64,000 bases of DNA, taken from assembly GCA_018817905.1 (NCBI GenBank), contig JAHISS010000087.1, positions 985 to 64,984 on the forward strand, in the 5' to 3' direction. Positions within the stretch are counted from its first letter, which is position 1. The number at the start of each line of letters is the position of its first letter. The notes beneath the pieces are model-generated. The model saw only the letters and a list, made by a program, of their open reading frames with translations. It did not search any database and had not been told where the DNA came from. The stretch comes from Nanobdellota archaeon (GTDB lineage Archaea > Nanobdellota > Nanobdellia > Pacearchaeales > GW2011-AR1). This document shows positions 1,881-34,046 of this stretch, piece after piece. The position numbers and the translations under genes were made by a program.

Positions 1881-2249
1881 TCATTTCTTCACAAATTCAA
1901 CATTTTCCAAACCTTCGAATTCCTTATCGCCTGTCAAAAATTTGACGCCCATTTCCCTTGCCATTGTATAAGAAACGCAATCTGTCATTGACATCTTCTT
2001 CTTTTTGTTTTCATAACGAAATTTCATGGCCTTCTTTAGGATTTCAGGATTGGGAAAAATTATCGCAGGTTCAACTTCATCAAGTATTTCTTCCTTATTC
2101 TCGGCCTTCCCAACAATCAACTGGTAAGAAAACTCTGCAAATATAAAATCATTGATTATGATTTCCTTGTCTGTGTATTGGTCGTAATTTGGGTTTTTAT
2201 TTAATATCTCAATCAAAGCATAAGTATCGTAAAGAAACGTCTCAGTCAT
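1881..2249 (-). CDS. vapC: PIN-domain toxin VapC
   Basis: 122 aa. N-terminal acidic motif FLYDTYALIE, then MTDCVSY and FLTGDKEF, typical of PIN. 8-nt overlap with the upstream AbrB-type antitoxin. Confidence 0.8.
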   Translation of the reverse strand: MTETFLYDTYALIEILNKNPNYDQYTDKEIIINDFIFAEFSYQLIVGKAENKEEILDEVEPAIIFPNPEILKKAMKFRYENKKKKMSMTDCVSYTMAREMGVKFLTGDKEFEGLENVEFVKK

Positions 2250-2463
2250 TGTACAAATCCTCTTCCATTTCTTTCATCAGCTGTTCAGTTGGTTTGGAAA
2301 ATTTATGCGCGCCAAATAATTTTCTTAAATTTGGTTTGTGTCTTTGTATGAAAATGGTTATTTCTTGTCCTTGAACTGCCTTGGCTTTTTCAATTGCTTT
2401 TTGAGGCACAACTATGCCGAACGAGTTTCCCCATTTTCTCAATTTCGTTTTTATCTCAATCAT
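2242..2463 (-). CDS. vapB: AbrB/SpoVT-fold antitoxin VapB
   Basis: 73 aa. KLRKWGNSFGIVVPQKAIEKA is the SpoVT/AbrB swapped-hairpin signature. Overlaps the vapC start. Confidence 0.8.
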   Translation of the reverse strand: MIEIKTKLRKWGNSFGIVVPQKAIEKAKAVQGQEITIFIQRHKPNLRKLFGAHKFSKPTEQLMKEMEEDLYND

Positions 2464-2612: not shown

Positions 2613-3311
2613 ATGGTAAAAGCGTTTAAGAAAAGAATTCCAGAGCTTGAAGAATTGTTTGAAGATGATAAAATTACTAAGAAATTTGTGGAAAGAGATG
2701 CCAAATTATTTTCTAGGAATGGAAGTTCATATCACAGAGTTAGTAAAGATATTATGACAAATATAAAAATTAAAGAAGGAAAAGTTTTGGATTTAGCATG
2801 CGGATATGGGGGTTTGATAGGGACCTTACAGGAGTATATGGTAAATAGTGATCTTGTTGGAATAGATGGTTCAGAATGGATAATAAAATTAGCTAAAAAA
2901 ACTATTAAATCAAAAAATATTAATTTTAAAGTTGCTCGAGCTGAAAAAATTCCATTTAAAGATGAGTCATTTGATTTAGTTTTATGTAGGGATTCAGTAC
3001 ACCATTTTAAAGACCCAATAAAAATCTTTAAAGAAATGTATAGAGTTACAAAGAAGAGCGGTATAATTTACATTCTTGATTTGAGAAGGGATGTTCCTGA
3101 AAAATTAATTTATGATGGTTTATTAGAGTTTTTCTGGACAAACCCCACCTTTACTACAGAATATCTTTACTCAATTAGGGCATCATATACAATATCTGAA
3201 ATAAGAAAAATACTAAATAAAATTAAAATAAAAAATTATTCATTACATAATTGCAGAGGGATTTCAGATTCCTATTTTAGAACCAGGTGGAAATTAATAA
3301 TTAAAAAGTAA
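2613..3311 (+). CDS. class I SAM-dependent methyltransferase
   Basis: 232 aa. Motif I VLDLACGYGGL, post-I LVGIDGS, and FDLVLCRDSVHHF typical of the Methyltransf_11/25 type. Confidence 0.8.
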   Translation: MVKAFKKRIPELEELFEDDKITKKFVERDAKLFSRNGSSYHRVSKDIMTNIKIKEGKVLDLACGYGGLIGTLQEYMVNSDLVGIDGSEWIIKLAKKTIKSKNINFKVARAEKIPFKDESFDLVLCRDSVHHFKDPIKIFKEMYRVTKKSGIIYILDLRRDVPEKLIYDGLLEFFWTNPTFTTEYLYSIRASYTISEIRKILNKIKIKNYSLHNCRGISDSYFRTRWKLIIKK

Positions 3312-3320
3312 ACAGTCAGA

Positions 3321-3503
3321 TGAGGCTGTCCGACAATACAAAACCAACCCGAATAAATTCATTCTAACAACCTATAAAAATTAGGTGTTAAAAAGACTTA
3401 TCTCCACACGAAATAAAAGATTAGTGTAAATCACAAGCTGAATGTGAACTATTTTAATCAAGGAATCGTCCCTAAATTTTGACTGGATTGTCGGACAGCC
3501 TCA
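3321..3503. repeat. 17-bp perfect inverted repeat pair (TGAGGCTGTCCGACAAT / ATTGTCGGACAGCCTCA) enclosing 149 nt of non-coding DNA
   Basis: Read directly: 3321-3337 is the exact reverse complement of 3487-3503. Lies between the methyltransferase stop and the secY stop. Confidence 0.85.
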
Positions 3504-3572
3504 AGCAATCATTTACTCTTAACCCGAACATTTCTAAGAAATCTTACACTTACAGAACATCTTGTTAATCAA

Positions 3573-4970
3573 TCACCCCATAAACTTTCTTAACGCGGGA
3601 TGCATATCAACTGCGTGTTGTTCTGCAATTCCTTTGTAAAGGTTGTACATAATCATTACCGCGAGCAAGATTGAAGTTCCGCCGGTAAGTGCGCCGAGCA
3701 AGTCTGCTGTTGAAGCAAGCAGGCCGATTGCCAGGCCGCCCATAATTGTCAAAGGCATTATGTATCTTTTCAAAATTGATTCTATAACTCGCGGGTCTTT
3801 TCTAAATCCAGGCAATTGCAGACCAGAACTAAGAATGTTTTTTGCCTGACTTGATTCGTCCATTCCAGAGGTCTTGACCCAGAACACTGCGAAGATTGCT
3901 GCGAAAATCATGTAAAACAAAAGATGGACGACTGCCTGCAAGATGAATCTTGATTGCATACTTCCACGAATTATCGCTTCAACAAGATTTGTGCTGGAAA
4001 TCCAGTAGGCAAAACCAGAAATTGCCGTGCCGTCGACGAAATTCCCAATGAAAGTTGGATGGCCGAGCCAATTTTGCAGCAAGTTTCCGAACAGCTGAAC
4101 ATTTGCAGAAAGGGCTGCGACCAAAATAACTGGAATAACGCTTGAATAGAAAAATGCAAGAGGCCATTTGACGCTGTAGCCGCGGATTCTTTCGTAAGTT
4201 AATGGGATTTCTACTTTTAGAGATTGTGCCCAGACAACGCCGAGGAAAATTACTACTGTTACGGCGATTGCTGCGATTGCAGAAAGTGCGTCGCGCGGCG
4301 CTCCGTTTATCACTGCCTGAATAATCACAAGTGCGTTTCCAGAACAAGGAGTGCCAGCAAAATCAAACAAACAGTTTTCTCCTGTCGGACCGATGAACTG
4401 GAACAATCTTGCAAAAAGAGTCCATGCAACTCCGGCAACAATGAAAAGCGAGACGCCGCCGCCGTTCTTGAATCCATATTTTTGCAAAACTTCATCCATG
4501 TACATTATTGCCAAGCCACCGAGAATTAACTGAAAGATTAAGATAATTGTAAAACCAGGAGCTGCTTGCAAACCGCCCATCACGACATAAACAATTGCTT
4601 CAAAAACAATGAAGAACAAAACGCCTACTTTTTGCAATCCCTGAAAGCGCCTTTTTCCTTCTTCGGTTTTTGTGTCAATGTTAAGAATTCCTGAGCCAGC
4701 AAGAAGCTGTAAAATAATTGATGACATAACTATTGGGCCAATCCCTAAACTAATTATGCTTCCAAACTGCGAGGCGAGAATAACTTGCAAAAATTCCAGA
4801 TTGCCGAGCGCGTTTTTTGACAAGCCGTAAAGGTCAATGTTCGCTAAGACGAAAAAAGCTGAAAGAATAATCAGAGTCCATTTTAGCTTTATGTTGAACG
4901 AAAGCTTTTTCTCTATAGGTTTTTTAACTTCTGGAAAATTGTACAACAGGGTTTGTATGTTGAGTGGCAT
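3573..4970 (-). CDS. secY: preprotein translocase subunit SecY
   Basis: 465 aa polytopic protein of archaeal SecY type (MPLNIQTLLYNFPEVKKP..., 10 TM pattern). Located distal to the r-protein supercluster as usual. Confidence 0.95.
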   Translation of the reverse strand: MPLNIQTLLYNFPEVKKPIEKKLSFNIKLKWTLIILSAFFVLANIDLYGLSKNALGNLEFLQVILASQFGSIISLGIGPIVMSSIILQLLAGSGILNIDTKTEEGKRRFQGLQKVGVLFFIVFEAIVYVVMGGLQAAPGFTIILIFQLILGGLAIMYMDEVLQKYGFKNGGGVSLFIVAGVAWTLFARLFQFIGPTGENCLFDFAGTPCSGNALVIIQAVINGAPRDALSAIAAIAVTVVIFLGVVWAQSLKVEIPLTYERIRGYSVKWPLAFFYSSVIPVILVAALSANVQLFGNLLQNWLGHPTFIGNFVDGTAISGFAYWISSTNLVEAIIRGSMQSRFILQAVVHLLFYMIFAAIFAVFWVKTSGMDESSQAKNILSSGLQLPGFRKDPRVIESILKRYIMPLTIMGGLAIGLLASTADLLGALTGGTSILLAVMIMYNLYKGIAEQHAVDMHPALRKFMG

Positions 4971-5118
4971 GTTATGGAAAGATTATAGAAAGAGGGTTTT
5001 AAAAGATTTGCCTGACTCCATTATCTCCCACGTGTTCATCGGAGATACTGGAAACAAGAAATAGATTTATATACTAAAGTGTCAGTATATTATTAAATAA
5101 ATGGGACTGTGTTAAAAA

Positions 5119-5394
5119 ATGGATAATCCAACATGGAGTGATATTTTCTCGTCTAATGACGTTTCATTAATAGTTGGTAAACAGCAGATGGAAGGATTTG
5201 TTAATGACTTAGGTAATGAGAAAGATGAAAGCGGATTTTTAATAGACTCAAATGATAAAAAGAGAGTGATTTCACAAGACGAGGATGAAATTAAACTAAA
5301 AGAATTGGGGAGCATTTCTTCTGGTTCTAAGATTTTTATAAAAGATAATCTTGCAAGTTATGCGGAGTTCTTAGCCCAGAAAAGAAGTTTGTAG
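5119..5394 (+). CDS. hypothetical acidic protein (91 aa)
   Basis: ORF opposite in strand to secY and the r-operon. 2-nt gap to the next ORF. No family recognised. Confidence 0.5.
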   Translation: MDNPTWSDIFSSNDVSLIVGKQQMEGFVNDLGNEKDESGFLIDSNDKKRVISQDEDEIKLKELGSISSGSKIFIKDNLASYAEFLAQKRSL

Positions 5395-5396
5395 CG

Positions 5397-6263
5397 ATGA
5401 CTGACGTTGTTTCTGTTGTCTTAGCTATTAAAAGTGTTTGGGAAGCAATAAAAGGAACACGAGAGTTAAAAAAAGTTGACCTGCCTTTAGCAATGAACGG
5501 AGAAGCTAGAAAAGATTTTCTAAACAACAATCCCAATTCTACCATAATCAATATAGCCGGTAATTGTTATATCGGAGATAAATCTCAAATAACTCAAGAA
5601 GAAAAGGATAAACTGAAAGAAATTTATAATCCAACAACACAAAGTGAAAAAAATTATGATATAATAGATACTGATTTTTTTGGAAGAATTCAAGAGTTCA
5701 AAAAAGAGCTTCCAGATAACAAGTCAATTAATCCTTTTCTTAAATTTCTTGAGCATGATTTAAGAACAATCTTGAATCTATCAATTTATTCAAAAAAACT
5801 GTTTGATAATAAAGAAGGAGAAAAAGCTCAAAAAGTTAGAGATGATATTGGTAAGCAGTATGGAAAAGGTGGAAGAAAACTTTGTAATTTATATCTTTCG
5901 GGTTATATAGATGGTATGACTGAATTCCTCATACAAGAATATGGGGACAACTTAGAAAAGGTGAAATCAGATATAAACAACAAAATAAGAAAATTTGTTG
6001 AAGATTCCGACTATATTTTTTTCGTACATTCCAGCTCAGATGAAAACCACATATTAAACAATATCCTAGAGTGTATTAATCAGGGCAGACCATACATCGC
6101 AATACATGGCGCTGGACCCACAAATATAAAAAAAGTCAGGAACATAATCTCAAAAATAGAAGGAGAACTTTCCAGTTTCGGATATGATAAAAATGAAGAT
6201 AATAAAAGAACACTTTCGCTCTGCCCTTTACTATACGTGTATTTGACAAAAAAGAAGATTTGA
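5397..6263 (+). CDS. hypothetical protein (288 aa)
   Basis: Long clean ORF coupled to 5119-5394. No motif recognised. Confidence 0.55.
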   Translation: MTDVVSVVLAIKSVWEAIKGTRELKKVDLPLAMNGEARKDFLNNNPNSTIINIAGNCYIGDKSQITQEEKDKLKEIYNPTTQSEKNYDIIDTDFFGRIQEFKKELPDNKSINPFLKFLEHDLRTILNLSIYSKKLFDNKEGEKAQKVRDDIGKQYGKGGRKLCNLYLSGYIDGMTEFLIQEYGDNLEKVKSDINNKIRKFVEDSDYIFFVHSSSDENHILNNILECINQGRPYIAIHGAGPTNIKKVRNIISKIEGELSSFGYDKNEDNKRTLSLCPLLYVYLTKKKI

Positions 6264-6394
6264 TTTAGAAGTTTATAACATTTCGCTGGTTCAATCTGTT
6301 TCCTTATGTAACTTTTCCATTTAAGAAAATACCTGTCTTTTACCAACTGCTTACGCAACAATGTAGCCTGACTCTAATTTCATGAAAGAATAAA

Positions 6395-7085
6395 CGTAAA
6401 CTACCGAGGGCTAAAGCCCTCAGCGTTTTAAGTTGAAAAATCAACAATTCTTTTTTGCATATCTTCGACAAGTTTAGGGGCTGAAGCCCTTTCCCAATGC
6501 TTGTCTTGACAGTCTTCAATGTAGTGCTTCATCGTCTCTTTGTTCACAGCACCGACGCTGCGGTAGAAATGTCCTCCACTCCAAAACTTATTTCCCCACA
6601 GCTTGTTTTTGAAAAGAGAGCTAAAGTGTCTTCGCATCTTGAAAGAACTGTAACCTTTGATTTGTCTGACAAGTTCTATCTCGCTGACAAATCTTACATT
6701 CGCAACAAACAAATGCAAATGATCTGGTCCAAAATTGTATGCAACCAAAACAACTTTCAGTTCATTTAACTTTTCCAGAATGCATGCAAAAGTTAATTCT
6801 GCAACTTGCTCATCTCGAAAAATCTGTCTTCGAAAAGCAGGAGTTAGCTGAATGTGAAAGTTGCTTTCACCGATAGCATTACTGCTCAGAATCAATTCCT
6901 TTTCCATTTTCACCTCCCGTAAGATTTAATTACGAGCAAGGCTACAGCTAACTGCTACGTGCAATGAGCTACAACCAGCTCATTGCTTATGTTCATTCAG
7001 ATTAGAAAAATATTACTGACTCGCTTTTGCGTCGTTGAAATTCAATCCGAGGGTTAAAACCTCACAGGGTTTCTTTCAACTGGCT
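6395..7085 (-). mobile_element. IS200/IS605-family insertion sequence (tnpA only); boundaries approximate
   Basis: Y1 transposase gene flanked by related subterminal hairpins CCGAGGGCTAAAGCCCTCA (6404-6422) and CCGAGGGTTAAAACCTCA (7047-7064). A perfect 10-bp stem hairpin GCAATGAGCT-acaacc-AGCTCATTGC (6961-6986) sits just upstream of tnpA. Confidence 0.6.
6428..6913 (-). CDS. tnpA: IS200/IS605-family Y1 (HUH) transposase TnpA
   Basis: 161 aa. FHIQLTPAFRRQIF, HUH motif DHLHLFV, IKGYSSFKMRRHF, and catalytic-Tyr region FWSGGHFYRSVG..ETMKHYIEDCQ. Confidence 0.85.
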   Translation of the reverse strand: MKMEKELILSSNAIGESNFHIQLTPAFRRQIFRDEQVAELTFACILEKLNELKVVLVAYNFGPDHLHLFVANVRFVSEIELVRQIKGYSSFKMRRHFSSLFKNKLWGNKFWSGGHFYRSVGAVNKETMKHYIEDCQDKHWERASAPKLVEDMQKRIVDFST

Positions 7086-7312
7086 CGTCCTAAAAACCAG
7101 ATTTGATTAATGATAATTATAGGTGTGGAATGAGAGATTAAAGTTTCTTTTCGTTATGACGGCAAGAATTATTTTCAATAAAGCCTCTGTCTGGGCCACA
7201 TCTTAGGACAAAGATTAATAGATAAGCCTTGTTCGGAGTTGATGGGTAGGGAGGTTATCTTTTTCTTTATTCCGAGGTCCAACACTTTGGCATCAATAAA
7301 CTGCCCAACCAC

Positions 7313-7380
7313 GATAGTCGTCTGGTTTATGAGATAATCATTTGGTGCTGGTGGTGGAACATATTTTTATTCAAGATAAT
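7313..7380 (+). repeat. dispersed intergenic repeat, copy A (about 70 nt)
   Basis: GTCGTCTGGTTTATGAGATAATCAT (7317-7341) is identical over 25 nt to 33951-33975. The following TATTTTTATTCAAGATAAT parallels TATTTTTGTTTAAGATAAAT in the other copy. Confidence 0.8.
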
Positions 7381-7772
7381 TATTTCCCAGAAACCAAAAT
7401 TTCCCCGCCGGCTTTTTTAACTTTGTCAATTGCCGAACTTGAAGCTGCGGACGCTTTTATTGTCAGCTTTTCCTTTACTTCGCCAAGTCCGAGAATCTTG
7501 TAACCCTTGAGTTCGATTTCTTTTTTACCTTTGAACTTTTCCACCAGGTCTCTCAAGTTTATTGTTTTCAGTTTTTTAGAGGGTTCTTTTCTCAAAGTTT
7601 TGTCTTTTCCAAAAGGATATTTGATTAAATTCTTTTTCTGGTCTGCTCGTTTTCCAGTTCCTGCTTTTCCAACTCCTCCCCTGTTTCCAGAACCTCTGGC
7701 TTTTTTCTTAAATCCTCTTGCAGCTGTGTGCGAACCGCGATGCCTTGTGTTTTTCTTTCTTTTTTTATTCAT
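7380..7772 (-). CDS. rpl15: 50S ribosomal protein uL15
   Basis: 130 aa. MNKKRKKNTRHRGSHTAARGFKKKARGSGNRGGVGKAGTGKR is the uL15 N-terminal signature. Last gene of the cluster. Confidence 0.92.
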   Translation of the reverse strand: MNKKRKKNTRHRGSHTAARGFKKKARGSGNRGGVGKAGTGKRADQKKNLIKYPFGKDKTLRKEPSKKLKTINLRDLVEKFKGKKEIELKGYKILGLGEVKEKLTIKASAASSSAIDKVKKAGGEILVSGK

Positions 7773-7947
7773 CTTCTTCCTCTGGCTGCATTGCTAAAAC
7801 ATTTTCAGCTTCTTTTTTTTCAATCATATCTTCTGGAACTTTAGCAAAACTTTCAATTGCCTGGCATTCCTCGCATTCTTGCGGAGGATACTGGCCGTAT
7901 TCGACGTTTCCGCATTCGCATTCCCACATGAAACCGTCTTTTGACAT
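7765..7947 (-). CDS. small zinc-ribbon protein (60 aa) inserted between uL30 and uL15 (insert 13)
   Basis: WECECGNVEYGQYPPQECEECQ gives a CxC...CxxC knuckle pair, followed by an acidic tail. Start overlaps the uL30 stop (1 nt) and the end overlaps the uL15 start (8 nt). Confidence 0.6.
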   Translation of the reverse strand: MSKDGFMWECECGNVEYGQYPPQECEECQAIESFAKVPEDMIEKKEAENVLAMQPEEEDE

Positions 7948-8369
7948 TACAACATCCTCCTAACCAAATCATTTATTTTCTCTTTGTTGTCTCCGAGAAC
8001 TGCCTTGCTGCTTGTTCCGAAATGTTTCTTTGAGTCTATTCCTCCTCTTGGCGGATGCAGCCTGAAAAAAGATTTTAAGCCTAAATCGTTCAATGATTTT
8101 TTGGCTAATCCTTCAACAATTTTCTCAGCGCTGATTTTATCTCCAGCTTTAATCGGTTGGCCTCTTTCCTTTATTAGTTGAACAAGAGTTTCTTTGTCTA
8201 TTGTTCCGTATGCGACATAGCTCCTTATTTTTTTTAAGAGTTTCAGATTTTCTTTAGTTGGCGCAAGAAGAACTGCAGAATACTTTCTTCTAAGTTTAAT
8301 TCTGAACAGGGTTTCTGTTACTTCCTTTGGAATTTCTACTTGGCCTGATATTCTTATTGTTAAAATCAT
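7947..8369 (-). CDS. rpl30: 50S ribosomal protein uL30
   Basis: 140 aa. ILTIRISGQV..TLFRIKLRRKYSAVL and FRLHPPRGG are archaeal uL30 hallmarks. Confidence 0.92.
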   Translation of the reverse strand: MILTIRISGQVEIPKEVTETLFRIKLRRKYSAVLLAPTKENLKLLKKIRSYVAYGTIDKETLVQLIKERGQPIKAGDKISAEKIVEGLAKKSLNDLGLKSFFRLHPPRGGIDSKKHFGTSSKAVLGDNKEKINDLVRRML

Positions 8370-9187
8370 TATGTCCTCATCTTTGTTGTTTTTTCAAGAG
8401 CATTGACGCATGCTTTTGCTAAATTGAAAGTTGTTTTTGTTTGTCCCTGCGTTTTTGTGTAGGCGTCTTTGATTCCTGCGAGTTTAAGGATTTTTTTGCA
8501 TTCGTCTCCTGTGACCAAGCCGGTTCCGCGAGGCGCTGGCCAGAGAGTAATTTTTACACTGCCTGATTTTCCCTGAACTTTGAACGGAACTGTGTGGGGA
8601 ATGCTGTCTTCTTTTTCATCTTCTGGAGATTCAAAACCAAGGTTAATTTTTATGAGGTTTAGTTTTGAGTTCCTAACTGCTTTTTCCCTTGCTGGCAGGG
8701 TTTCGCTTGCCTTGCCAAAACCAACTCCAACATGTCCTTTTTTATCTCCAGCAACTGCCATTGCAGAAAATGAAACAACATTTCCCTCCTGGGTTTTCTT
8801 TTGCGTTTGCCTCCACGCTCTTCTCTTGCCTCCGCCAAATTTTCCCTTTGCCTGACCAATTAAAATCAGGTCTGTCTCAATATTCAAAAGCGAATCAACA
8901 ATTTCTGATTCTAAAATCTTTTTTCCTTTTTCTAAAATCTTGTCAATGTCTTTTTCTTTTTTTTCTTTTACTAATCTTCCAAGATTGGTTTTTGGAACCC
9001 ATGCAGCTAACAGCACCTTAGGATCTTCCCTCTGAAATCTCCCATCTCTCCGGCCGTATTGTTTTTTTGAATTTTCTGTTTTTTCTGGCTCTTCTGTTTT
9101 TTCTGTTTCTTTCTCTAACTTTACAACTTCTTCTGGTGTTGCTTCAACAAGATCTTTTGGTTCGTTTTTTGTTTCTTTTTCTGCCAT
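8369..9187 (-). CDS. rps5: 30S ribosomal protein uS5 with Lys/Glu-rich N-terminal extension
   Basis: 272 aa. Core GKRRAWRQTQKKTQEGNVVSFSAMAVAGDKKGHVGVGFGKA and WPAPRGTGLV. The first 45 aa or so are a KE-rich extension. Confidence 0.92.
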   Translation of the reverse strand: MAEKETKNEPKDLVEATPEEVVKLEKETEKTEEPEKTENSKKQYGRRDGRFQREDPKVLLAAWVPKTNLGRLVKEKKEKDIDKILEKGKKILESEIVDSLLNIETDLILIGQAKGKFGGGKRRAWRQTQKKTQEGNVVSFSAMAVAGDKKGHVGVGFGKASETLPAREKAVRNSKLNLIKINLGFESPEDEKEDSIPHTVPFKVQGKSGSVKITLWPAPRGTGLVTGDECKKILKLAGIKDAYTKTQGQTKTTFNLAKACVNALEKTTKMRT

Positions 9188-9188
9188 T

Positions 9189-9509
9189 TTATTTTCCGTG
9201 CCTCCTTAATACTGCGTCTCTTTCTGAATGTCCTTCATCCTTAGGGCCATAGCCCCTATCTCGATTCGGATGTAAAAACGTTACTTTTCCATTATGTATT
9301 GGGTAGGAAATAACATCAATTGCTTGAGTTCCAGGGACCCTTCTAAGAAATCTTGCTCTTTCCGAATGACTCCTATAATTTCCTTCATGTGTCTCACTAA
9401 AAAACAATTCCAATTCTGATCCTTGATCGGGCTGAACTAACACCCTATCTTCAGACACGAGGTTTCTTGCCTTTAACGTTTGGCTTGATTTTATTTCTAA
9501 AGTTGCCAT
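9189..9509 (-). CDS. hypothetical protein interleaved in r-protein operon (insert 12, 106 aa, uL18|uS5 junction)
   Basis: 1-nt spacers on both sides. Its own SD AAGGAGGT lies in the last uL18 codons. Its last codons AAGGAGGCACGGAAAATAA supply the SD for uS5. Arg 12 vs Lys 5. No family recognised. Confidence 0.65.
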   Translation of the reverse strand: MATLEIKSSQTLKARNLVSEDRVLVQPDQGSELELFFSETHEGNYRSHSERARFLRRVPGTQAIDVISYPIHNGKVTFLHPNRDRGYGPKDEGHSERDAVLRRHGK

Positions 9510-9510
9510 T

Positions 9511-9984
9511 TTATAACTTTTCCTTTACCTCCTTAAAGATACTTTTAAGCTTTTCGTTAGCTTCAATTCTTTCTGTTTTTGGCAAGGTGCTTTCTTTATG
9601 CGGGATTTTCAAACCAGCGTCTATTGCTCCTTTTACAAGTGCGTAGATTCTTGAACCGTGAATGTTTCTGTTCAGACCGAAATCTAAAATCGCTTCGTTG
9701 ACTTTTGTCTTTATGTTTTTTACTAGGAGGAATCCGGTTAAGTAAGCGGCTGGAAGAGATTTCAAACTTCCTGATTTTTCTTTTGGCCAACCTTTTTCAA
9801 GGAGTTCCTGCGAGCTCGCCTTTGCTACAACTTTGTCCTGAGCTATTTGCGATTCAACAATCTGAGCGATAATGTAATGATTTGTTTTTCTTACGACTAA
9901 GCGCGGTTTTTCTGACTTCAACATTGTAAATCTTGCTTTGTAGTCTGTTTTTGCTTGTTTTCGGCGACGTTTTAGAGTTTTCAC
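9511..9984 (-). CDS. rpl18: 50S ribosomal protein uL18
   Basis: 157 aa. RRRKQAKTDYKARFTMLKSEKPRLVVRKTNHYIIAQIV is the uL18 signature. Confidence 0.92.
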   Translation of the reverse strand: MKTLKRRRKQAKTDYKARFTMLKSEKPRLVVRKTNHYIIAQIVESQIAQDKVVAKASSQELLEKGWPKEKSGSLKSLPAAYLTGFLLVKNIKTKVNEAILDFGLNRNIHGSRIYALVKGAIDAGLKIPHKESTLPKTERIEANEKLKSIFKEVKEKL

Positions 9985-10397
9985 TTTTCTTCCTCCTGCA
10001 TTTCAGCTAACCTTTCTTTCATGTGAGCCAAACTTCTGAAGTCTGAGGCCCGGATTTCTTTCCGCAATTTGTAATAATCTTCCAGCGAAATTTTCTTTCT
10101 CTTCTTCAAGTTTGAAAGATAAGTTCTTAATTTTCTCGTCATAGTAACATAATCTTGTTTTCTTGTCTTCACTGTTTTCTTTACTGAACCAGCACGTCTT
10201 CTTGTTTTTCTTTTTTTGATTTTTCTCCGTCCCTTTTTTTCCTCTATGAAAATCGCGCCAGATTCTTTCAAATCTTTCATGTCTTGTTTTGTTATTGCTT
10301 CTTTTAATTCTGCCAAGCGCGCGGTGTTGAAAGAGATTCTGTTCTTTCCTGTCTTTAACGCCCTTGCAGCTAACTCTTTTTTCTTTTCAAGTTTCAT
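9981..10397 (-). CDS. rpl19e: 50S ribosomal protein eL19
   Basis: 138 aa. KKELAARALKTGKNRISF...ITKQDMKDLKESGAIFIEEKKGRRK is typical eL19. Confidence 0.92.
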   Translation of the reverse strand: MKLEKKKELAARALKTGKNRISFNTARLAELKEAITKQDMKDLKESGAIFIEEKKGRRKIKKRKTRRRAGSVKKTVKTRKQDYVTMTRKLRTYLSNLKKRKKISLEDYYKLRKEIRASDFRSLAHMKERLAEMQEEEK

Positions 10398-10696
10398 GCT
10401 GTCCCCCGATGTTGTTCGACGAATTCTGAAACTGTCTTAAATTCAGGATGTGTTTCAGGAATTCTGCTCGTTGAAGTAAGGGATGGTTCTAAAACATCTA
10501 AGCCCGATAAATTATAAACACTTCTTAAAAATGCTAACTGACCCTCCACTGGGACTGGTTTTGGATCAATTATTTCTACAACCGTTCCCTTGGTTTTATA
10601 CACTAATCCTTTTGGGATCCTTTGACAAAAAACTTTTTCTCCAGGGTGATAAGATCCTCTAACTTTCAGTTCCCTTGGTCTTGTTTGCGTTGTCAT
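10394..10696 (-). CDS. hypothetical protein interleaved in r-protein operon (insert 11, 100 aa, eL32|eL19 junction)
   Basis: ATGA overlaps with the eL32 stop and the eL19 start. Begins MTTQT. Ends ..ACAGCATGA. No family recognised. Confidence 0.65.
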   Translation of the reverse strand: MTTQTRPRELKVRGSYHPGEKVFCQRIPKGLVYKTKGTVVEIIDPKPVPVEGQLAFLRSVYNLSGLDVLEPSLTSTSRIPETHPEFKTVSEFVEQHRGTA

Positions 10697-11586: not shown

Positions 11587-11952
11587 TTATGCTGCGCTCC
11601 TATCTTTCTTACAGGATAATTCTAAAACTGCTTGATAGGGTTTATAGAAACGTTCACGAACAATTTCAATTAATGGTTTGTAATAATCTGGAAAAACAGG
11701 TCTTTCTGTTTTTGGATTAATGCCATATTTTCTAAAATCTGATTGGGCCAAGGGCATGGCTTCAAAAGCTGTGTGATACTCTCTCATCAAAACGTTTGTT
11801 TTACCAGGGTTGCCAATTACCTGTTCTGCCCTGTCTAAATGTGTATGTATAAAATTTGCAACAACTAAAAATTTAGCCATGTCTCCGCTTATAGCCCGTT
11901 GTTCCCAAAGTTTTCCTATTGTGACAAGAGAAGGATTTAATTTTTTAGCCAT
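11587..11952 (-). CDS. hypothetical protein interleaved in r-protein operon (insert 10, 121 aa, uS8|uL6 junction)
   Basis: 1-nt spacers to the uS8 stop and the uL6 start. Ends AGCGCAGCATAA. No family recognised. Confidence 0.65.
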   Translation of the reverse strand: MAKKLNPSLVTIGKLWEQRAISGDMAKFLVVANFIHTHLDRAEQVIGNPGKTNVLMREYHTAFEAMPLAQSDFRKYGINPKTERPVFPDYYKPLIEIVRERFYKPYQAVLELSCKKDRSAA

Positions 11953-12329: not shown

Positions 12330-12560
12330 TTAACTATATTTTTTGAAGCCGATTTCTACTGCGATTTCTCGGAAGCAGTGTCGGCAGATGTTTAGATTAT
12401 ACTGATTGAGGTGAGCGCCGAAGCGACCGCATCTTTCGCATTTTCGCGCGGCGATTCCGGTCTTTCTTTCCTTCGGCTTGCAGTGCTTTAGGAACTTTTT
12501 CATAATTTCTGGTTTGTCCTTCAATTGCTTTGTTATTTTTTTCCAATCTGATGCTGTCAT
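12330..12560 (-). CDS. rps14: 30S ribosomal protein uS14 (zinc type)
   Basis: 76 aa. CERCGRFGAHLNQYNLNICRHCFRE is the Zn-ribbon uS14 core. Has an N-terminal extension relative to typical archaeal uS14. Confidence 0.88.
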   Translation of the reverse strand: MTASDWKKITKQLKDKPEIMKKFLKHCKPKERKTGIAARKCERCGRFGAHLNQYNLNICRHCFREIAVEIGFKKYS

Positions 12561-12862
12561 ATTGTGTCTGCCTCCAAGATTTCCTTAAACCTTTCGAATA
12601 TTTCCATTTCTTTTTCTCCACGCAAACAGTCTGGGTGCATTGTATAAACACTATCATCTCCATTCCTACGCGATATTGTTGAGCCATCGAATAATAATTT
12701 AAAATGCGTGGTGCCGAAAACTTCGATTGATCCTTTGTTGTTGCCTGGTTTAATAAATTGATGATATGGGTATTCTCCATCAACATATTTGAATCTTTCT
12801 CCAGAAGGTCTGACTGGATACCATTCGCCCATTGCCAACTTTGGTTTTGTTTGTGTTGTCAT
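12557..12862 (-). CDS. hypothetical protein interleaved in r-protein operon (insert 9, 101 aa, second ORF at the uL5|uS14 junction)
   Basis: ATGA overlaps at both ends. Begins MTTQT. Last codons CTTGGAGGCAGACACAATATGA carry the SD for uS14. No family recognised. Confidence 0.65.
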   Translation of the reverse strand: MTTQTKPKLAMGEWYPVRPSGERFKYVDGEYPYHQFIKPGNNKGSIEVFGTTHFKLLFDGSTISRRNGDDSVYTMHPDCLRGEKEMEIFERFKEILEADTI

Positions 12863-13215
12863 ATTCTCCTTTGTTCACTCCTTTCAACCATGGCATACAA
12901 ATCTTGAAAGCCTATTGTTCCTTCTTCAATACCCTCACATGGACAGATTTTTCGGATGCTGAAATTACTCCCTTGATCCACTGCTGCCCAATATAGGCGA
13001 AGATATTTTTTGCGAAGTATCTTATCTGTTTGTGCGAATAGTGCTCTTGCCCCGTCTGTATCGGCCACGGTTCCAACATAGTTATATCTAACCCGCCTAT
13101 CTGGGGAAACTATTATATCTCCTTCATGTATAATGGTAATATCTATGAGGGGATTTGCTACTACTACCGCATGTTCACGATGAATTAATGGGGTTGCCGC
13201 TGTCATCTCACTCAA
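12859..13215 (-). CDS. hypothetical protein interleaved in r-protein operon (insert 8, 118 aa, first ORF at the uL5|uS14 junction)
   Basis: 8-nt overlap with the uL5 end and ATGA overlap with insert 9. AAAGGAGAATATGA supplies the SD for insert 9. Arg 11 vs Lys 4. Confidence 0.65.
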   Translation of the reverse strand: MSEMTAATPLIHREHAVVVANPLIDITIIHEGDIIVSPDRRVRYNYVGTVADTDGARALFAQTDKILRKKYLRLYWAAVDQGSNFSIRKICPCEGIEEGTIGFQDLYAMVERSEQRRI

Positions 13216-13744
13216 CCTCTGTCTCGAAGTTTTCTTCGAGGAATTTAATTATTTCTTCAGGGGAAATTTTTTGTTTTTCTGGGAGTTTTCCTCTTTTGAT
13301 TTTTCTTCTCTTAACTCTTACTCCTGCTCTGATAAAACATGCAGTTACATTTAAACCTCTAATTCCAATTTCTCTTTGATATTCTATCCCGGGAATTTCA
13401 ATGTATTCATGGATTCCAAAAGAAAACGAGTTTTCTGCGATTTGCTTTTCGTCGAGCTCGTTGTCAACTGCGCCTAAAAGTTTTTTCAGGATTTCAAAAG
13501 CATGTTTTCCACGCAATGTCACTGATGTTCCAAGAGGTAAGTGCGGCTTCACTCCAAAGTCAGGAATTCTCCGCTTTGGTCCTGCCTTCATGATTTGCGC
13601 TTTTTTTCCTGAAATCATTTCCAAAAGTTTCTGCGACTTTTCAAGATTCGGACCTGTTGCTCCACAGCTAAGAACAACTTTCTCAAGTTTTACTTCTCTC
13701 ATTGGATTTTCTTTTTTTTCCTGGATTTGGGTTTGGGTTGTCAT
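13208..13744 (-). CDS. rpl5: 50S ribosomal protein uL5
   Basis: 178 aa. NPMREVKLEKVVLSCG..., RRIPDFGVKPHLPLGTSVTLRG, GIHEYIEIPGIEY. N-terminal MTTQTQIQEKKE precedes the usual start; an alternative start is M15 at 13702. Confidence 0.92.
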   Translation of the reverse strand: MTTQTQIQEKKENPMREVKLEKVVLSCGATGPNLEKSQKLLEMISGKKAQIMKAGPKRRIPDFGVKPHLPLGTSVTLRGKHAFEILKKLLGAVDNELDEKQIAENSFSFGIHEYIEIPGIEYQREIGIRGLNVTACFIRAGVRVKRRKIKRGKLPEKQKISPEEIIKFLEENFETEVE

Positions 13745-14013
13745 CTTTGTCCTCCCGGACCTCTGAAATAAGCATTCGTAAATTGAATTAGTAAAATACT
13801 GTAAAGTCTCTCCATTGCATTAACTAAACCGAGATATGCCTCTTGATTCGGTGGCGATGCCAGGGTTCTTCTCATTTCTCCAAAACGTTGATTAATTCTG
13901 TCCCTTGCTGCGAAAAAACCTTTAATGTTATTTCCTTCTTCGGCATATCTTCTTTGTTCGCTTACATCTTTCAATACTTCTTCTGTGAAAGATGCGATTT
14001 TTGCTAAACTCAT
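13741..14013 (-). CDS. hypothetical protein interleaved in r-protein operon (insert 7, 90 aa, eS4|uL5 junction)
   Basis: ATGA overlaps with the eS4 stop and the uL5 start. Last codons GGTCCGGGAGGACAAAGATGA carry the SD for uL5. Arg 10 vs Lys 3. Confidence 0.65.
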   Translation of the reverse strand: MSLAKIASFTEEVLKDVSEQRRYAEEGNNIKGFFAARDRINQRFGEMRRTLASPPNQEAYLGLVNAMERLYSILLIQFTNAYFRGPGGQR

Positions 14014-15022: not shown

Positions 15023-15322
15023 TTATGCTGCAGTCCCGCTACTTCTAATGAAATGACTAACTACTATAAGTTGGATTTCCAAGGCATTTTGAAGGTGCCC
15101 GTTAATTTCCCTTAAATGATTAACATTTGAAACATCTATGTTTTCGACAATGGCTAAGTGTTCACCAATTCTCTCATTATAATACCTTGCTCCCACTGTA
15201 TTACCAGATATTATTGCAGTCGCTAATTCATCTACGTAGCGCTTAAGAGCTTGGCTGGACCTTTTAGCCACTAAATAATTCCTTCTTTCAGAATCCTGAC
15301 TTAATCTAATTGTTGTATTCAT
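15023..15322 (-). CDS. hypothetical protein interleaved in r-protein operon (insert 6, 99 aa, uL14|uL24 junction)
   Basis: Track ORF 15023-15385 trimmed to the ATG at 15322 (MNTTIRLS...), 1 nt after the uL14 stop. 1-nt spacer to the uL24 ATG. Ends ACTGCAGCATAA. Arg 9 vs Lys 2. Confidence 0.6.
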   Translation of the reverse strand: MNTTIRLSQDSERRNYLVAKRSSQALKRYVDELATAIISGNTVGARYYNERIGEHLAIVENIDVSNVNHLREINGHLQNALEIQLIVVSHFIRSSGTAA

Positions 15323-15323
15323 T

Positions 15324-15749
15324 TTACAAAACATACTGAGCAATCTTGGCGACAGATGGCCAACGCTCCTGAACCTCCCTTGCAACTGGACCTTTAATTT
15401 GAGTTCCTTTTGGATTGCCTTTGTCGTCTTTCATTAAGGCTACGGCGTTGTCTTCGAAGCAGACTCTCTCACCTGTTAGTCTCCGGTAAGGTTTCTTTTG
15501 GCGGATTACAACTGCATCAAACACTTGGCCTTTCATGTCCGGCTTTCCTTTTCTGACAGAGACTTTTACCCAGTCCGATATTTTAGCATACTGCTGTCTT
15601 TTCTTTGTTGTTTTTCCGCCTTTTACTCCTGTGATTCTGACAATTCTCGCGCCGCTGTTGTCTGAAGCAAGAACCTGACTGCCAATGTTTAAACCGCGCG
15701 TTGCTCTTGCACTAATCGCCTTTCCGAATATTTTTTTTGATTTTGTCAT
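15324..15749 (-). CDS. rpl14: 50S ribosomal protein uL14
   Basis: 141 aa. GLNIGSQVLASDNSGARIVRITGVKG...FEDNAVALM is the uL14 signature. Confidence 0.92.
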   Translation of the reverse strand: MTKSKKIFGKAISARATRGLNIGSQVLASDNSGARIVRITGVKGGKTTKKRQQYAKISDWVKVSVRKGKPDMKGQVFDAVVIRQKKPYRRLTGERVCFEDNAVALMKDDKGNPKGTQIKGPVAREVQERWPSVAKIAQYVL

Positions 15750-16057
15750 TATTCGATTTCCTCCAAAGCTTTCTTAATTAAAGGATAAAGCGGATGACGC
15801 CTGTTTGCCCAGTAATGATTGTGACTCTTCTGAACAGAAGAGAACGTTCCATTTGGAAAAAGGACAAAACTATAAACCGGAATACAGCCAATAGTGTGGA
15901 AATTCTCCGTGTCCACTACGATAAGACTCCCGTCTTCCATGCCTGCGTATCGTCCTTCTATCCCTGAAGCCTCTCCGATAACTACATTATCTCCAATCTT
16001 AGTGTTTCTCGCATCTTCTGCTGTTCTTACTAACAATGCGGGTCTTCGTGGACTCAT
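15749..16057 (-). CDS. hypothetical protein interleaved in r-protein operon (insert 5, 102 aa, uS17|uL14 junction); weak Rpp29-like motif
   Basis: ATGA overlap with the uS17 stop and TAATG overlap with the uL14 start. GCTTTGGAGGAAATCGAATAATG supplies the uL14 SD. KIGDNVVIGEASGIEGR...IPVYSFVLFPNG loosely recalls the Rpp29 Sm-like pattern (LIGxxVxV..GIEGxVVDET..IPK..xFxF). This assignment is not secure. Confidence 0.6.
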   Translation of the reverse strand: MSPRRPALLVRTAEDARNTKIGDNVVIGEASGIEGRYAGMEDGSLIVVDTENFHTIGCIPVYSFVLFPNGTFSSVQKSHNHYWANRRHPLYPLIKKALEEIE

Positions 16058-16948: not shown

Positions 16949-17254
16949 CTATTGAACCTCCCCAGGTATATTACTTCTCCTTCTTAGTTCAGTTAATTCT
17001 TGTTCTAACTCTCCTAATGAAGACATCAATTCTACTCTCATTTGACTGGGCGCTTTTTGTGATAAATGATCTGTGGGAATGCAGGGAAGTTCTTGGCTAA
17101 TGAATTGATACACCTCTACATCCAAACTTGCCAATTGGTCAAGGAGTCCTGAATATCCTGGCAAGCCAACAGTTTGAACACCTTGCACTCTCTTTGTAAG
17201 ACTCTGGGTTTGTTTATAGAGTTCTTCGTATACTTCTCGGCCTTGTGCAATCAT
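16949..17254 (-). CDS. hypothetical protein interleaved in r-protein operon (insert 4, 101 aa, uS3|uL29 junction)
   Basis: ATGA overlap with the uS3 stop. Last codons GGGGAGGTTCAATAG give the SD for uL29, 6 nt downstream. Gln/Leu/Glu-rich and helical-looking. Confidence 0.62.
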   Translation of the reverse strand: MIAQGREVYEELYKQTQSLTKRVQGVQTVGLPGYSGLLDQLASLDVEVYQFISQELPCIPTDHLSQKAPSQMRVELMSSLGELEQELTELRRRSNIPGEVQ

Positions 17255-17974: not shown

Positions 17975-18415
17975 TTATGCGAAAACCTCCCTTAGCACTC
18001 TTAAAGCGTTATCTCTTTTTTTCCAATCTGGGTTCGTTACTCTGAGATAAGACCTGCCGTGACCTTCATCAGTAAAATGTTCTACGGTGCAATCTCTCAC
18101 ATGATAAATAAGGGAGGTTGAATCATGATATGCGCTATGATCTGGACTTGTAATGGGGGCACTAAAGTCTGTATCGCCAAAGCAGAGTATAATCGGATTA
18201 TCAATTCTGCGTTGAGGACTGGCTAATTTGGCTAATGCATTTCCTAAGTTTGCATTAGCACTTGTCACAAATTCTAACATTTCATGCATTTCAGGAAAAT
18301 CCCCCGCATCAAAGATATATAAATCAAACTCGTCGTCTCTGGCTGAACCGATTTTCCATTCAAACCCCCCAATACGATTTTGTCCAATTAACTTTTGTTG
18401 TGTTGCTTTTGCCAT
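17975..18415 (-). CDS. hypothetical protein interleaved in r-protein operon (insert 3, 146 aa, uL22|uS3 junction)
   Basis: Start overlaps the uL22 stop (TAATG). Last codons GGGAGGTTTTCGCATAA supply the SD for uS3, 1 nt downstream. Asp/His-rich (DHSAYHDSTSLIYH, HFTDEGHG). No family recognised. Confidence 0.65.
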   Translation of the reverse strand: MAKATQQKLIGQNRIGGFEWKIGSARDDEFDLYIFDAGDFPEMHEMLEFVTSANANLGNALAKLASPQRRIDNPIILCFGDTDFSAPITSPDHSAYHDSTSLIYHVRDCTVEHFTDEGHGRSYLRVTNPDWKKRDNALRVLREVFA

Positions 18416-20151: not shown

Positions 20152-20499
20152 TTATTCTCTTCTTCTAAGATTTACTTCTACCATGTCATCAAACAACTCC
20201 TTGTATCTTACATCACTTTGGTCTAAGGTGATATATCTACCACCAAGAGTTGTAACTATTCCATTCTTCCCAAATCTAAGCCCATTTTCAGACACGATAA
20301 ATAAATAAATGGAATCTCTTGTGCGTGGGAAAGCAAACGAGAAGTCTCCTTCTTCTGAACCTCGATATTGGGCTAGTGTTCCCCCAGCAGACAAGCCATA
20401 GCCGTCTATTCTTACTACTTTTTTAACCGCCCGATGCAGCTCATCTAAACTATTTACTTGTGTCTCTATATCTTCTATATCCCTTGCTTCTTGTGCCAT
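20152..20499 (-). CDS. hypothetical protein interleaved in r-protein operon (insert 2, 115 aa, uL23|uL2 junction)
   Basis: Start overlaps the uL23 stop (TAATG). 1-nt spacer to the uL2 ATG. Arg 12 vs Lys 4. No family recognised. Confidence 0.65.
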   Translation of the reverse strand: MAQEARDIEDIETQVNSLDELHRAVKKVVRIDGYGLSAGGTLAQYRGSEEGDFSFAFPRTRDSIYLFIVSENGLRFGKNGIVTTLGGRYITLDQSDVRYKELFDDMVEVNLRRRE

Positions 20500-21524: not shown

Positions 21525-21812
21525 CTAAATATATTGAATATTTCCCCCTGCTTCCAATCTTGCAGATATTTCTGGAATGGACTCAAGGGTTCCAACCCTT
21601 TCGACTGTTTTTCCAGTTTCTGATTCATAAACTCGAGTTAGATAGTCACATGAAGCTAAAACATGAACTCGCATAATCACTAATCTGTCATCAAGTGTCT
21701 GCGCTTTTTCACAATCGCCATTTTCTCTAGCACCCTTAGCAGCCTTTCTAAATAAGTCATGCTTTTTCTTCCAATAAATTACTCTTTCTGCAGCTTTTTT
21801 TAATTCGCTCAT
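21525..21812 (-). CDS. hypothetical protein interleaved in r-protein operon (insert 1, 95 aa, uL3|uL4 junction)
   Basis: 1-nt spacer after the uL3 stop and 4-nt spacer before the uL4 ATG. SD GGAGGT lies within the last uL3 codons. No family recognised. Confidence 0.62.
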   Translation of the reverse strand: MSELKKAAERVIYWKKKHDLFRKAAKGARENGDCEKAQTLDDRLVIMRVHVLASCDYLTRVYESETGKTVERVGTLESIPEISARLEAGGNIQYI

Positions 21813-33877: not shown

Positions 33878-33945
33878 TTGGAAATAACTGTAAAACCAGA
33901 TTCACTAAATACGCAAACACCAATAATAAAAAACCGTTCAGCTAT

Positions 33946-34015: not shown

Positions 34016-34046
34016 AATTTTTAAACATCTCCTGCTTGAAAATAAG

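Follow-up and report, generated by a model that had tools for sequence, protein, structure and literature searches.

Recurrent interruption of the uL15-secY junction in Pacearchaeota/Woesearchaeota-like archaea and a conserved two-gene operon with a predicted Alba-fold domain at one interrupted site

The stretch of Pacearchaeales DNA that we analyzed (64,000 nt; here, the 64-kb window) carries uL15 and secY on the same strand, separated by 2,409 nt (positions 4971 to 7379; Table 1). An earlier note on this DNA had described such a split, and the ORFs, the insertion sequence (IS), and the repeat-bearing DNA that it placed in the interval are all present. The secY product is 60 to 87% identical to SecY of 80 relatives, and uL15, the final gene of the ribosomal-protein super-operon, has homologues in 67 related loci. 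Between them lie three unrelated parts: the ORF91/ORF288 operon, a tnpA-only IS200 element, and ~280 nt of non-coding DNA. An Rfam scan of positions 4800 to 7600 at E ≤1 returned nothing, and comparison of the relatives' gap ORFs with the window found no pseudogene remnant of an older occupant.

Table 1. Positions of genes and other features in and around the uL15-secY interval.
Feature	Position	Strand	Remarks
secY	3573-4970	-	465 aa; Pfam SecY 4.1e-60, Plug_translocon (Sec61 plug) 4.5e-08
Promoter-like box of secY	4988-5005	-	CTTTTAAAACCCTCTTTC on minus strand; same position conserved in relatives
TATA-like box of ORF91/ORF288	5064-5074	+	GATTTATATAC, 55-45 nt upstream of ORF91
ORF91	5119-5394	+	Small acidic protein, pI 4.5; conserved partner of ORF288
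ORF288	5397-6263	+	Helical N-terminal region and C-terminal Alba-fold domain (both predicted)
Alba-fold domain of ORF288	~6009-6260	+	Residues ~205-288; predicted structure
Non-coding spacer, ORF288 stop to IS right end	6264-6394		No ORF or Rfam match
IS200-type insertion sequence, tnpA only	6395-7097	-	~700 bp; left end accurate to ~3 nt
Right-end subterminal hairpin	6406-6421	-	GAGGGC-TAAA-GCCCTC; inverted repeat
tnpA, Y1/HUH transposase	6428-6907 (ORF to 6913)	-	159 aa; likely true start ATG at 6907
Left-end subterminal hairpin	7049-7063	-	GAGG-GTTAAAA-CCTC; orientation as right-end hairpin, similar sequence
Non-coding DNA, IS left end to uL15 stop codon	7098-7379		No ORF having homologues; no Rfam match
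Repeat, 85-91 nt	7295-7385		Second copy at 33928-34022, 74% identical
uL15	7380-7772	-	130 aa; Pfam Ribosomal_L27A 1.8e-13

The ribosomal-protein order leading up to the interval (...uS8-uL6-eL32-eL19-uL18-uS5-uL30-uL15) is that of the canonical archaeal S10-spc cluster [...uS5-uL30-uL15-secY(-adk)], and here too secY is the next conserved same-strand gene after uL15. The canonical L30-L15-secY order has been documented in the DPANN archaeon GW2011_AR10 (PMC10833476). The present locus differs in that secY lies 2.4 kb away, apparently with its own promoter, and in that opposite-strand genes intervene where the canonical co-transcribed unit has uL15 and secY in direct succession. No adk was apparent in the translations of the ORFs that follow secY. 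Another feature of this genome's cluster is a set of ~12 extra orphan ORFs interleaved with the ribosomal-protein genes. These had no matches in Pfam, PHROGs, PDB sequences, viral contigs, or phages, and they are the more surprising lead.

We surveyed the spacing between the stop codon of uL15 and the ATG of secY in 67 Pacearchaeota/Woesearchaeota-like relatives for which both genes could be seen. The two genes were coupled (≤8 nt) in 18 of the 67; gaps measured 18 to 66 nt in 26 loci, 113 to 376 nt in 4, and more than 450 nt in 19 (456 to 4,265 nt, a maximum of 4.3 kb). Three further loci had no uL15 within 6 kb of secY. The uL15-secY linkage is not invariant, and roughly one species in three of this clade has an interrupted junction; the earlier description of a normally invariant linkage that is split here was correct as to the split and overstated as to the rule. 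The cargo was different in each genome with an enlarged gap and included PIN toxins (L034 and L057), a HEPN plus nucleotidyltransferase pair (L056), and a reverse transcriptase (L011), the remaining contents having no recognized identity. Neither ORF91 nor ORF288 nor tnpA occurred in the uL15-secY gaps of the 67 relatives. The type II toxin-antitoxin pairs in these gaps (VapBC and HEPN-MNT; L034, L057, and L056) are, like ORF91/ORF288, small two-gene cassettes at this junction but have no sequence or fold in common with them. Relative to the L30-L15-secY order, the segment is accessory, as had been proposed, and the closest relatives have no such content at the site. The arrangement is not common to relatives, and both ORFs have clear homologues as well as coding signal.

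Upstream of secY, TTTTAAAA begins 34 nt before the ATG. Of 60 loci that had a gap of ≥18 nt or no uL15 in view, 46 have a box of the form cTTTAAAAAc(c/t)tcTTTt at this same distance from secY; the 18 loci with gaps of ≤8 nt all lack it. With the window counted, the box occurs at 17 of the 20 loci whose gap exceeds 400 nt, at all 4 with gaps of 100 to 400 nt, and at 17 of 26 with gaps of 18 to 70 nt. From this distribution, we infer that the TTTAAAAA box ~34 nt upstream of secY is a TATA-type promoter. The secY gene of Pacearchaeota/Woesearchaeota-like DPANN archaea would then be a transcription unit of its own, and DNA landing between uL15 and the box would leave secY transcription intact. The junction may tolerate insertions because the conserved box would give secY its own promoter, and many lineages could then have gathered unrelated cargo between uL15 and the box. 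The 2.4-kb interval would be a mosaic of three independent pieces at a recurrent variable spot of this archaeal clade.

The first of these pieces is a pair of genes spaced 2 nt apart. The GATTTATATAC box may be the operon's own promoter, and the ORF91 homologues in L005, L091, L089, L002, L093, and L001 are preceded, at a comparable distance, by a TTTATATA-type box; the gap cargo here would be a self-contained opposite-strand operon with its own TATA-like box. Neither protein had a match at threshold in Pfam, NCBIfam, PADLOC, or PHROG, in agreement with the earlier reading that they contain no recognizable domains. Homologues of ORF288 (n = 17) and ORF91 (n = 21) were located on the same contigs, with an ORF91 homologue directly upstream of the ORF288 homologue wherever upstream sequence was present, including in relatives that are ~20 to 25% identical. 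A profile search with ORF288 retrieved ~445 clusters (50% identity) of similar length, and the architecture and size of the pair are retained at identities as low as ~20%. The close family is rare (17 clusters versus at least 148 SecY relatives in the genome scan). A close-alignment metagenome scan recovered only 8 loci, mostly redundant, and a further word-indexed protein search with broad alignment added almost nothing new and no taxonomy for distant members. Elsewhere, the module occupies nine distinct neighborhoods, mostly of housekeeping genes. Its neighbors include GatB/ProRS, CDC48/TFIIS, and malic enzyme/PPIase; one copy lies directly upstream of uL3, and the L001 locus adjoins pilus/secretion genes. 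Sequence comparison points to ORF91/ORF288 as an old conserved archaeal pair that resides in differing chromosomal neighborhoods. The G+C content of the module (0.314) falls within the lowest 1.6% of the window. This value was rejected as a sign of recent transfer, since all eight other loci tested likewise have a module poorer in G+C than the DNA around it.

In the predicted structure, the C terminus of ORF288 has the β-α-β-α-β-β order of an Alba/IF3-C-like fold, and its probable assignment as an Alba-fold domain rests mainly on that model. ORF288 itself had no Pfam Alba match at the family threshold; 2 of 142 ORF288 family members matched PF01918 (best E value, 5.7e-6), and 2 matched Rpp20 at 0.055. 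A search of PDB sequences with the family profile returned no Alba. An hhalign comparison with a single Alba sequence (Sso10b) gave a weak alignment (E = 0.04; probability, 1.3%) that covered only the expected motif. That weakly scoring alignment puts G240, which is conserved in at least 90% of the 142 family members, on Gly43 of Sso10b, a residue at the β2-α2 junction of Alba that is reported to be conserved (PMC11621453). The β2-α2 motif of ORF288, YIAIHGxGxxNIxK, parallels Alba IVIKARGRAISK, including the universally conserved Gly (PMC11621453). The nearest fold relative of ORF288 would be the Alba superfamily (Alba/Sac10b of archaea, Rpp20/Pop7 and Rpp25/Pop6 of eukaryotes, and the SpoVS-like fold of bacteria). 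Compared to Alba, ORF288 is three times longer, with a helical N-terminal region of ~200 residues that, like ORF91, had no recognizable fold, and it is always paired with a small protein that is not Alba-like in a low-confidence model. A canonical Alba gene that could serve as native comparator was not found in the DNA examined. A 2024 survey of Alba proteins distinguishes 13 subgroups, and the names DPANN and Pacearchaeota are absent from it. ORF288 would consist of a helical, partly basic N-terminal region and a C-terminal Alba-fold domain, and most likely it binds nucleic acid, probably RNA, as a complex with ORF91, the small acidic protein. Nucleic-acid binding appears more likely than a role as toxin/antitoxin or against viruses.

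The second piece was correctly recognized in the earlier note as an IS200/IS605-like element. Its transposase matches Pfam Y1_Tnp PF01797 (2.4e-22; 79.8 bits against a cutoff of 23) and NCBIfam transpos_IS200 (80.2 bits against a cutoff of 55), and a GGAGGTG ribosome-binding site precedes the tnpA ATG. The HUH motif (H63-L-H65) and the Tyr within FYRSVG (residues 114 to 119) were read from the sequence. The hairpins form a direct repeat (6404 to 6418 versus 7047 to 7061; 87%), and apart from tnpA no ORF of ≥50 aa lies wholly inside the element; tnpB is absent. A Y1 HUH transposase with its conserved Tyr, a compact size of ~0.7 kb, same-orientation subterminal hairpins, and the lack of tnpB place the element in the IS200 group of IS200/IS605; its host here is a DPANN archaeon, and the window shows one copy. 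The ends were placed from contig divergence and assembly-graph breaks, the right end being set where contig L097 diverges after 6395. All 7 mismatches to the sister MAG, which is otherwise identical, fall inside the IS; these SNPs and the graph breaks at its ends point indirectly to several copies, and no empty site was recovered. Copies of the IS are heterogeneous, and the element is probably multi-copy, in the population. ORF288 and uL15 converge, and the element would have inserted separately into the non-coding DNA that separates their 3' ends; this insertion may have been later than, or independent of, the arrival of the operon.

The repeat near uL15 shares an exact 25-mer, GTCGTCTGGTTTATGAGATAATCAT, with its second copy (0 expected by chance). 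No consistent RNA fold was common to both copies on either strand, and no copy occurred in any of the relatives' loci compared. A tRNA-derived attachment site was considered and rejected because the window contains no tRNA gene.

Could the interval be a product of assembly, a false join made at a repeated IS between parts that are not true neighbors, with uL15 on one side and the module and secY on the other? The IS does act as an assembly-graph repeat: Logan contigs of SRR6514274 break at both of its ends, stopping at 6422 and 7068 (~27 to 30 nt inside each end), and L097 departs from the window sequence 11 nt past the right end. However, contig L107 of a separately assembled NCBI MAG (GCA_018815165.1) matches window positions 3279 to 10263 at 99.9% with identical gene order from secY through eL19. 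Logan contig L108, from another run (SRR27458548), covers 3260 to 6652 and crosses the module-to-IS junction, while L097 covers 7406 to 6395 and crosses the uL15-to-IS junction. Every junction is confirmed by L107, L108, L109, L110, L097, and L106, and a chimeric join would still leave uL15 and secY non-adjacent, so that we regard a misjoin as most improbable. It is also very improbable that the IS200 element brought the two-gene module here, whether as passenger cargo or through an IS-mediated rearrangement, as the earlier note had entertained in suggesting delivery with or near the IS. Just 131 nt separate the element from the 3' end of ORF288, and the heterogeneous, probably multi-copy state of the IS would suit such a history. 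Against this, the module is outside the IS ends (~6395 and ~7097; ORF288 ends at 6263), and ~700 bp is the size of a tnpA-only IS200. A composite transposon is excluded because only one IS copy occurs in the 64-kb window, and tnpA is absent from every other module locus. IS200/IS605 elements move as single strands set by their own hairpin ends, a mode of movement that does not normally mobilize flanking DNA.

Two other readings concern the operon itself. The suggestion that ORF91/ORF288 is an addiction, abortive-infection, or defense module in a variable island near secY, with ORF91 as the antitoxin-like partner and ORF288 as the effector, draws on the tight coupling of the two genes with the small acidic protein ahead of the larger one, on the varying location and rarity of the close family, and on the presence, at the uL15-secY junction of relatives, of true toxin-antitoxin pairs (PIN; HEPN plus nucleotidyltransferase). 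A PIN/AbrB-like pair, read from translations, apparently lies just downstream of secY (1881 to 2463), and there was a sub-threshold match to the ABC-3C middle component MC4 (Pfam E = 0.061; cutoff, 28 bits). That match, however, lies where the model has its lowest confidence, and only 2 of 142 family members show it. A PADLOC scan matched neither ORF to any defense model (best match, AbiTi; E = 0.53), and ORF288 had no relatives among IMG/VR viral contigs. The module's neighbors elsewhere are housekeeping genes rather than defense islands or mobile elements, and retention of size and architecture to ~20% identity better resembles a cellular function maintained by vertical inheritance. The Alba fold predicted for ORF288 is not known as a toxin fold. 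A defense or addiction function, which the earlier note had offered as conjecture, appears unlikely on this evidence. The close-family rarity and varying location also fit an accessory or selfish module. We think it quite unlikely that the pair represents an undescribed, widespread archaeal two-protein system with a divergent Alba-fold domain and no Pfam family, relocating from site to site without recognizable mobility genes and with the uL15-secY junction (and here the whole super-operon) as a preferred landing zone. In its strongest form, this reading would make the pair a new kind of module that targets RNA and acts on translation, for addiction or for regulation.

The overall reading that we consider probable is that of a variable junction, tolerated by virtue of the secY promoter, which here holds a conserved operon of nucleic-acid-binding type and a separate IS insertion. 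No paradigm is changed by this locus; the IS is ordinary, and the defense idea is unsupported. In one large archaeal clade that has been little studied, a textbook "invariant" linkage is nonetheless routinely broken, and a secY promoter, acquired or kept, may provide a simple mechanistic reason. This result is relevant to the use of uL15-secY synteny as an anchor in binning and marker-gene work and to how operons dissolve in reduced genomes. For ORF91/ORF288, an uncharacterized and broadly conserved archaeal family, the predicted Alba-like nucleic-acid-binding domain may offer a testable handle.

The uL15-secY linkage of the window is split by a 2.4-kb segment with opposite-strand genes and an insertion sequence (IS), a feature described in an earlier note on this DNA and confirmed here by gene calls and domain scans. 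The host is a DPANN archaeon with low-G+C DNA (38%); public protein records are titled "MAG: Nanoarchaeota archaeon," and relatives carry Pacearchaeota or Woesearchaeota labels. Between secY and uL15 lie 2,409 nt, which hold non-coding DNA in addition to ORF91, ORF288, and the transposase gene. An assembly artefact was ruled out by the gene order in L107, a separately assembled NCBI contig of the sister MAG GCA_018815165.1 (99.9% identity to positions 3279 to 10263), and by Logan contigs from other sequencing runs that span each junction (L108, 3260 to 6652; L097, 7406 to 6395; L106, 10308 to 7068). The arrangement is genuine.

Coordinates of features in the window and, where an L-handle is given, of cargo in the uL15-secY gap of a relative's locus
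Feature	Position	Strand	Remarks
secY	3573-4970	-	Pfam SecY 4e-60
secY box	4988-5005		
ORF91	5119-5394	+	no domain match
ORF288	5397-6263	+	no domain match
IS200-type Y1 transposase gene	6428-6913	-	Pfam Y1_Tnp 2.4e-22
Non-coding DNA	7098-7379		no ORF call; Rfam scan empty
Intergenic repeat, 85-91 nt	7295-7385; 33928-34022		74% identical; exact 25-mer GTCGTCTGGTTTATGAGATAATCAT in common
uL15	7380-7772	-	Pfam L27A 1.8e-13
Orphan ORF	9189-9509	-	also in Logan contig L106 (independent) and sister MAG L107
Orphan ORF	10394-10696	-	
Orphan ORF	11587-11952	-	
Orphan ORF	12557-12862	-	
Orphan ORF	12859-13215	-	
Orphan ORF	13741-14013	-	
Orphan ORF	15023-15385	-	
Orphan ORF	15749-16057	-	
Orphan ORF	16949-17254	-	
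Orphan ORF	17975-18415	-	
Orphan ORF	20152-20499	-	
Orphan ORF	21525-21812	-	
PIN-domain toxin	L034 5013-5670		
PIN-domain toxin	L057 5137-5568		
HEPN + nucleotidyltransferase pair	L056 5267-5940		
Reverse transcriptase	L011 5045-5944		RVT_1 2.4e-8

The secY locus was taken from 80 species-level relatives (SecY 60 to 87% identical), uL15, uL30, and uS5 were located in each, and gap length was taken as the distance between the uL15 stop codon and the secY ATG. The two genes were coupled (gap of ≤8 nt) in 18 relatives and 18 to 66 nt apart in 26; gaps measured 113 to 376 nt in 4 relatives and 456 to 4,265 nt in 19, and in 3 others uL15 was absent within ~6 kb upstream of secY. The cargo of large gaps differs genome by genome and includes, besides the tabulated genes, putative methyltransferase, transporter, and membrane proteins, assigned by sequence inspection alone, plus unknowns. 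None of the relatives' gaps holds ORF91, ORF288, or tnpA, and that of the closest relative (L009; SecY 87% identical) holds an unrelated 234-aa ORF; the reading of the segment as an accessory insertion is therefore borne out. The canonical order, ...L30-L15-secY, is documented in another DPANN genome (PMC10833476), so the premise that the linkage is normally invariant stands in general but fails in this clade, given the 19 relatives with the longest gaps. Seen across the clade, this site resembles a small islet of the variable or defence type.

An alignment over relatives of the 90 nt that precede the secY ATG showed a conserved cTTTAAAAAc(c/t)tcTTTt that starts ~34 to 35 nt upstream of this codon. 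This box is present at 17 of the 20 loci with gaps of >400 nt (the window counted among them), at all 4 with gaps of 100 to 400 nt, at 17 of 26 with gaps of 18 to 70 nt, at 8 of 10 where uL15 was not in view, and at none of the 18 with gaps of ≤8 nt. From its position and conservation, we infer that the box is an archaeal TATA-type promoter, which would yield a leaderless or short-leader secY mRNA and make secY an independent transcription unit. If the box is read in this way, the DNA between it and the uL15 stop codon would be free to vary.

The mobile element in the gap is IS200/IS605-like, as the earlier note had it, with a Pfam Y1_Tnp match and similar, same-orientation hairpins flanking tnpA (CCGAGGGCTAAAGCCCTC, 6404 to 6421; CCGAGGGTTAAAACCTC, 7047 to 7063). 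Translated from the ATG at 6907, which a GGAGGTG site precedes, TnpA is 159 aa long; its HUH motif is H63-L-H65, and FYRSVG is its conserved Tyr region. The right end of the element lies at ~6395, where L097 diverges, and Logan contigs of one run end at 6422 and 7068, ~27 to 30 nt inside the IS ends, which places the left end at ~7095 to 7098 and gives an element of ~700 bp. Over 6,985 nt, the window and the sister MAG differ by seven mismatches, all inside tnpA (6518 to 6807), which suggests that IS copies are heterogeneous in the population while their flanks are clonal. The two-gene module of ORF91 and ORF288 ends at 6263, outside the element, and its proposed delivery by the IS is unsupported. 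The IS is an ordinary one that inserted separately into the non-coding DNA where two genes converge; it was not the vehicle for the module. From uL15 to the far end of the IS, L097 (run SRR27458547) matches the window exactly; the 11 nt just past window position 6395 (L097 1013 to 1023, ATATGGCGGCC) have no match in the sequences compared and could reflect another flank or a second IS copy in that sample, or an artefact at the contig tip.

Homologues of ORF288 (n = 17; 48 to 71% identity) and ORF91 (n = 21; 58 to 75%) were recovered from the same contigs, with the ORF91 homologue directly upstream of its partner in every locus that has upstream sequence and, in the close family, 1 to 3 nt from it or overlapping. 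An ORF288 profile searched against 1.84 billion representatives matched 445 clusters at E ≤ 1e-3 and 138 at E ≤ 1e-10, almost all 260 to 340 aa long. In two distant members as well (L094 and L095/96; ~20 to 25% identity), hmmsearch detected a small ORF91 homologue upstream (1e-11 and 3e-15), and most loci keep a TTTATATA-type box ~45 to 55 nt ahead of ORF91 (5064 to 5074 in the window); the pair is thus old and forms a self-contained operon. Its surroundings vary from genome to genome: it lies upstream of GatB and ProRS, adjoins CDC48, TFIIS, and an ABC transporter, sits between malic enzyme and prolyl isomerase, directly precedes the uL3-uL4 operon (in L093, on the same strand as uL3), or adjoins pilus genes. 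No tnpA was found near the other module loci and no module relative in IMG/VR viral contigs. Two module loci, L005 and L091, have CDC48, TFIIS, and a metallophosphatase as common neighbours, an indication that the family, at least in part, has descended vertically and undergone local rearrangement. At 0.314, the G+C content of the module falls within the lowest 1.6% for the window. Recent transfer was rejected as the cause, since at each of the eight other loci tested the module again has less G+C than the DNA around it; low G+C belongs to these genes. The S10 operon of L093 has an RNase T/DEDD-type exonuclease gene (3607 to 4260) between uL4 and uL23.

An AlphaFold2 model of ORF288 (pLDDT 76.6 overall, ~90 for residues 200 to 288) is helical in its N-terminal part and ends in a β-α-β-α-β-β domain, and Alba entries rank first in a Foldseek search of the PDB. 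The ORF288 sequence itself has no Pfam Alba match, and 2 of 142 family members match PF01918 (best, 5.7e-6) and 2 match Rpp20 weakly. The most conserved family motif, YIAIHGxGxxN..K, aligns to IVIKARGRAISK in an Alba sequence, and the nearly invariant G240 lands on its Gly43. This residue, whose numbering, like that of Lys16, fits the published one, is reported to be shared by all Albas and to take part in RNA binding (PMC11621453). The family that ORF91 and ORF288 represent is uncharacterised and has a divergent Alba-fold domain. Our preferred reading, held at about even odds, is that ORF288 is an Alba-fold nucleic-acid-binding protein working with a small acidic partner. A defence or addiction role, as the earlier note conjectured, would fit the cassette-like architecture of the module, the rarity of its close family, and the toxin-antitoxin cargo of relatives at the same junction, but it is unlikely and unsupported by the scans: the best PADLOC match has an E value of only 0.53, and a match to MC4 is sub-threshold and located in a low-confidence segment of the model.

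The non-coding DNA next to uL15 bears no trace of a remnant of relatives' gap genes. The repeat that overlaps it includes a ATGAnnnnnTCAT palindrome followed by a TATA-like stretch at the plus-strand end; in the second copy, this stretch precedes an ORF (34047 to 36173) that begins just downstream. No consistent fold common to both copies was found, and the copy at 7295 to 7385, the one scanned, had no Rfam match.

The ribosomal-protein super-operon runs for ~15.4 kb from uL3 (22755) to uL15 (7380), and ~12 same-strand orphan ORFs of 90 to 146 aa are interspersed among its genes. Their junctions are operon-like (overlap to 7 nt), with Shine-Dalgarno-like ends in most. They matched nothing in Pfam or NCBIfam, eight had no match in PHROGs, and a few compared with PDB sequences, viral contigs, or phage records gave nothing convincing. 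No mutual similarity was detected, ten had no exact copy in a 15-billion-protein collection, and relatives, in which the ribosomal-protein genes are contiguous, have no counterparts. The orphan ORFs are Lys-poor, unlike host proteins; third-codon-position G+C is host-like low in the three measured. Between uL30 and uL15 lies a 60-aa acidic Zn-ribbon/rubredoxin-like ORF (CxC...CxxC; 7765 to 7947, minus strand; NCBIfam RCKP-type rubredoxin, 3.9e-5, under cut-off), a clade-specific component of the ribosomal operon that 25 related genomes keep in the same place. No adk was noticed downstream of secY among the listed ORFs. What lies there is the one further part of the window that is strongly G+C-poor (~0.29); as read from translations, it holds overlapping genes for a likely PIN-like toxin of 122 aa and an AbrB/SpoVT-like antitoxin of 73 aa (1881 to 2463, minus strand) and, on the opposite strand, a SAM-methyltransferase-like ORF (2613 to 3311). 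The uL15-secY gap is one of many interruptions of this ribosomal-protein operon. The variability of the junction, together with the promoter account of it, is a modest new point on one clade, and the orphan ORFs may surprise more than the gap itself.
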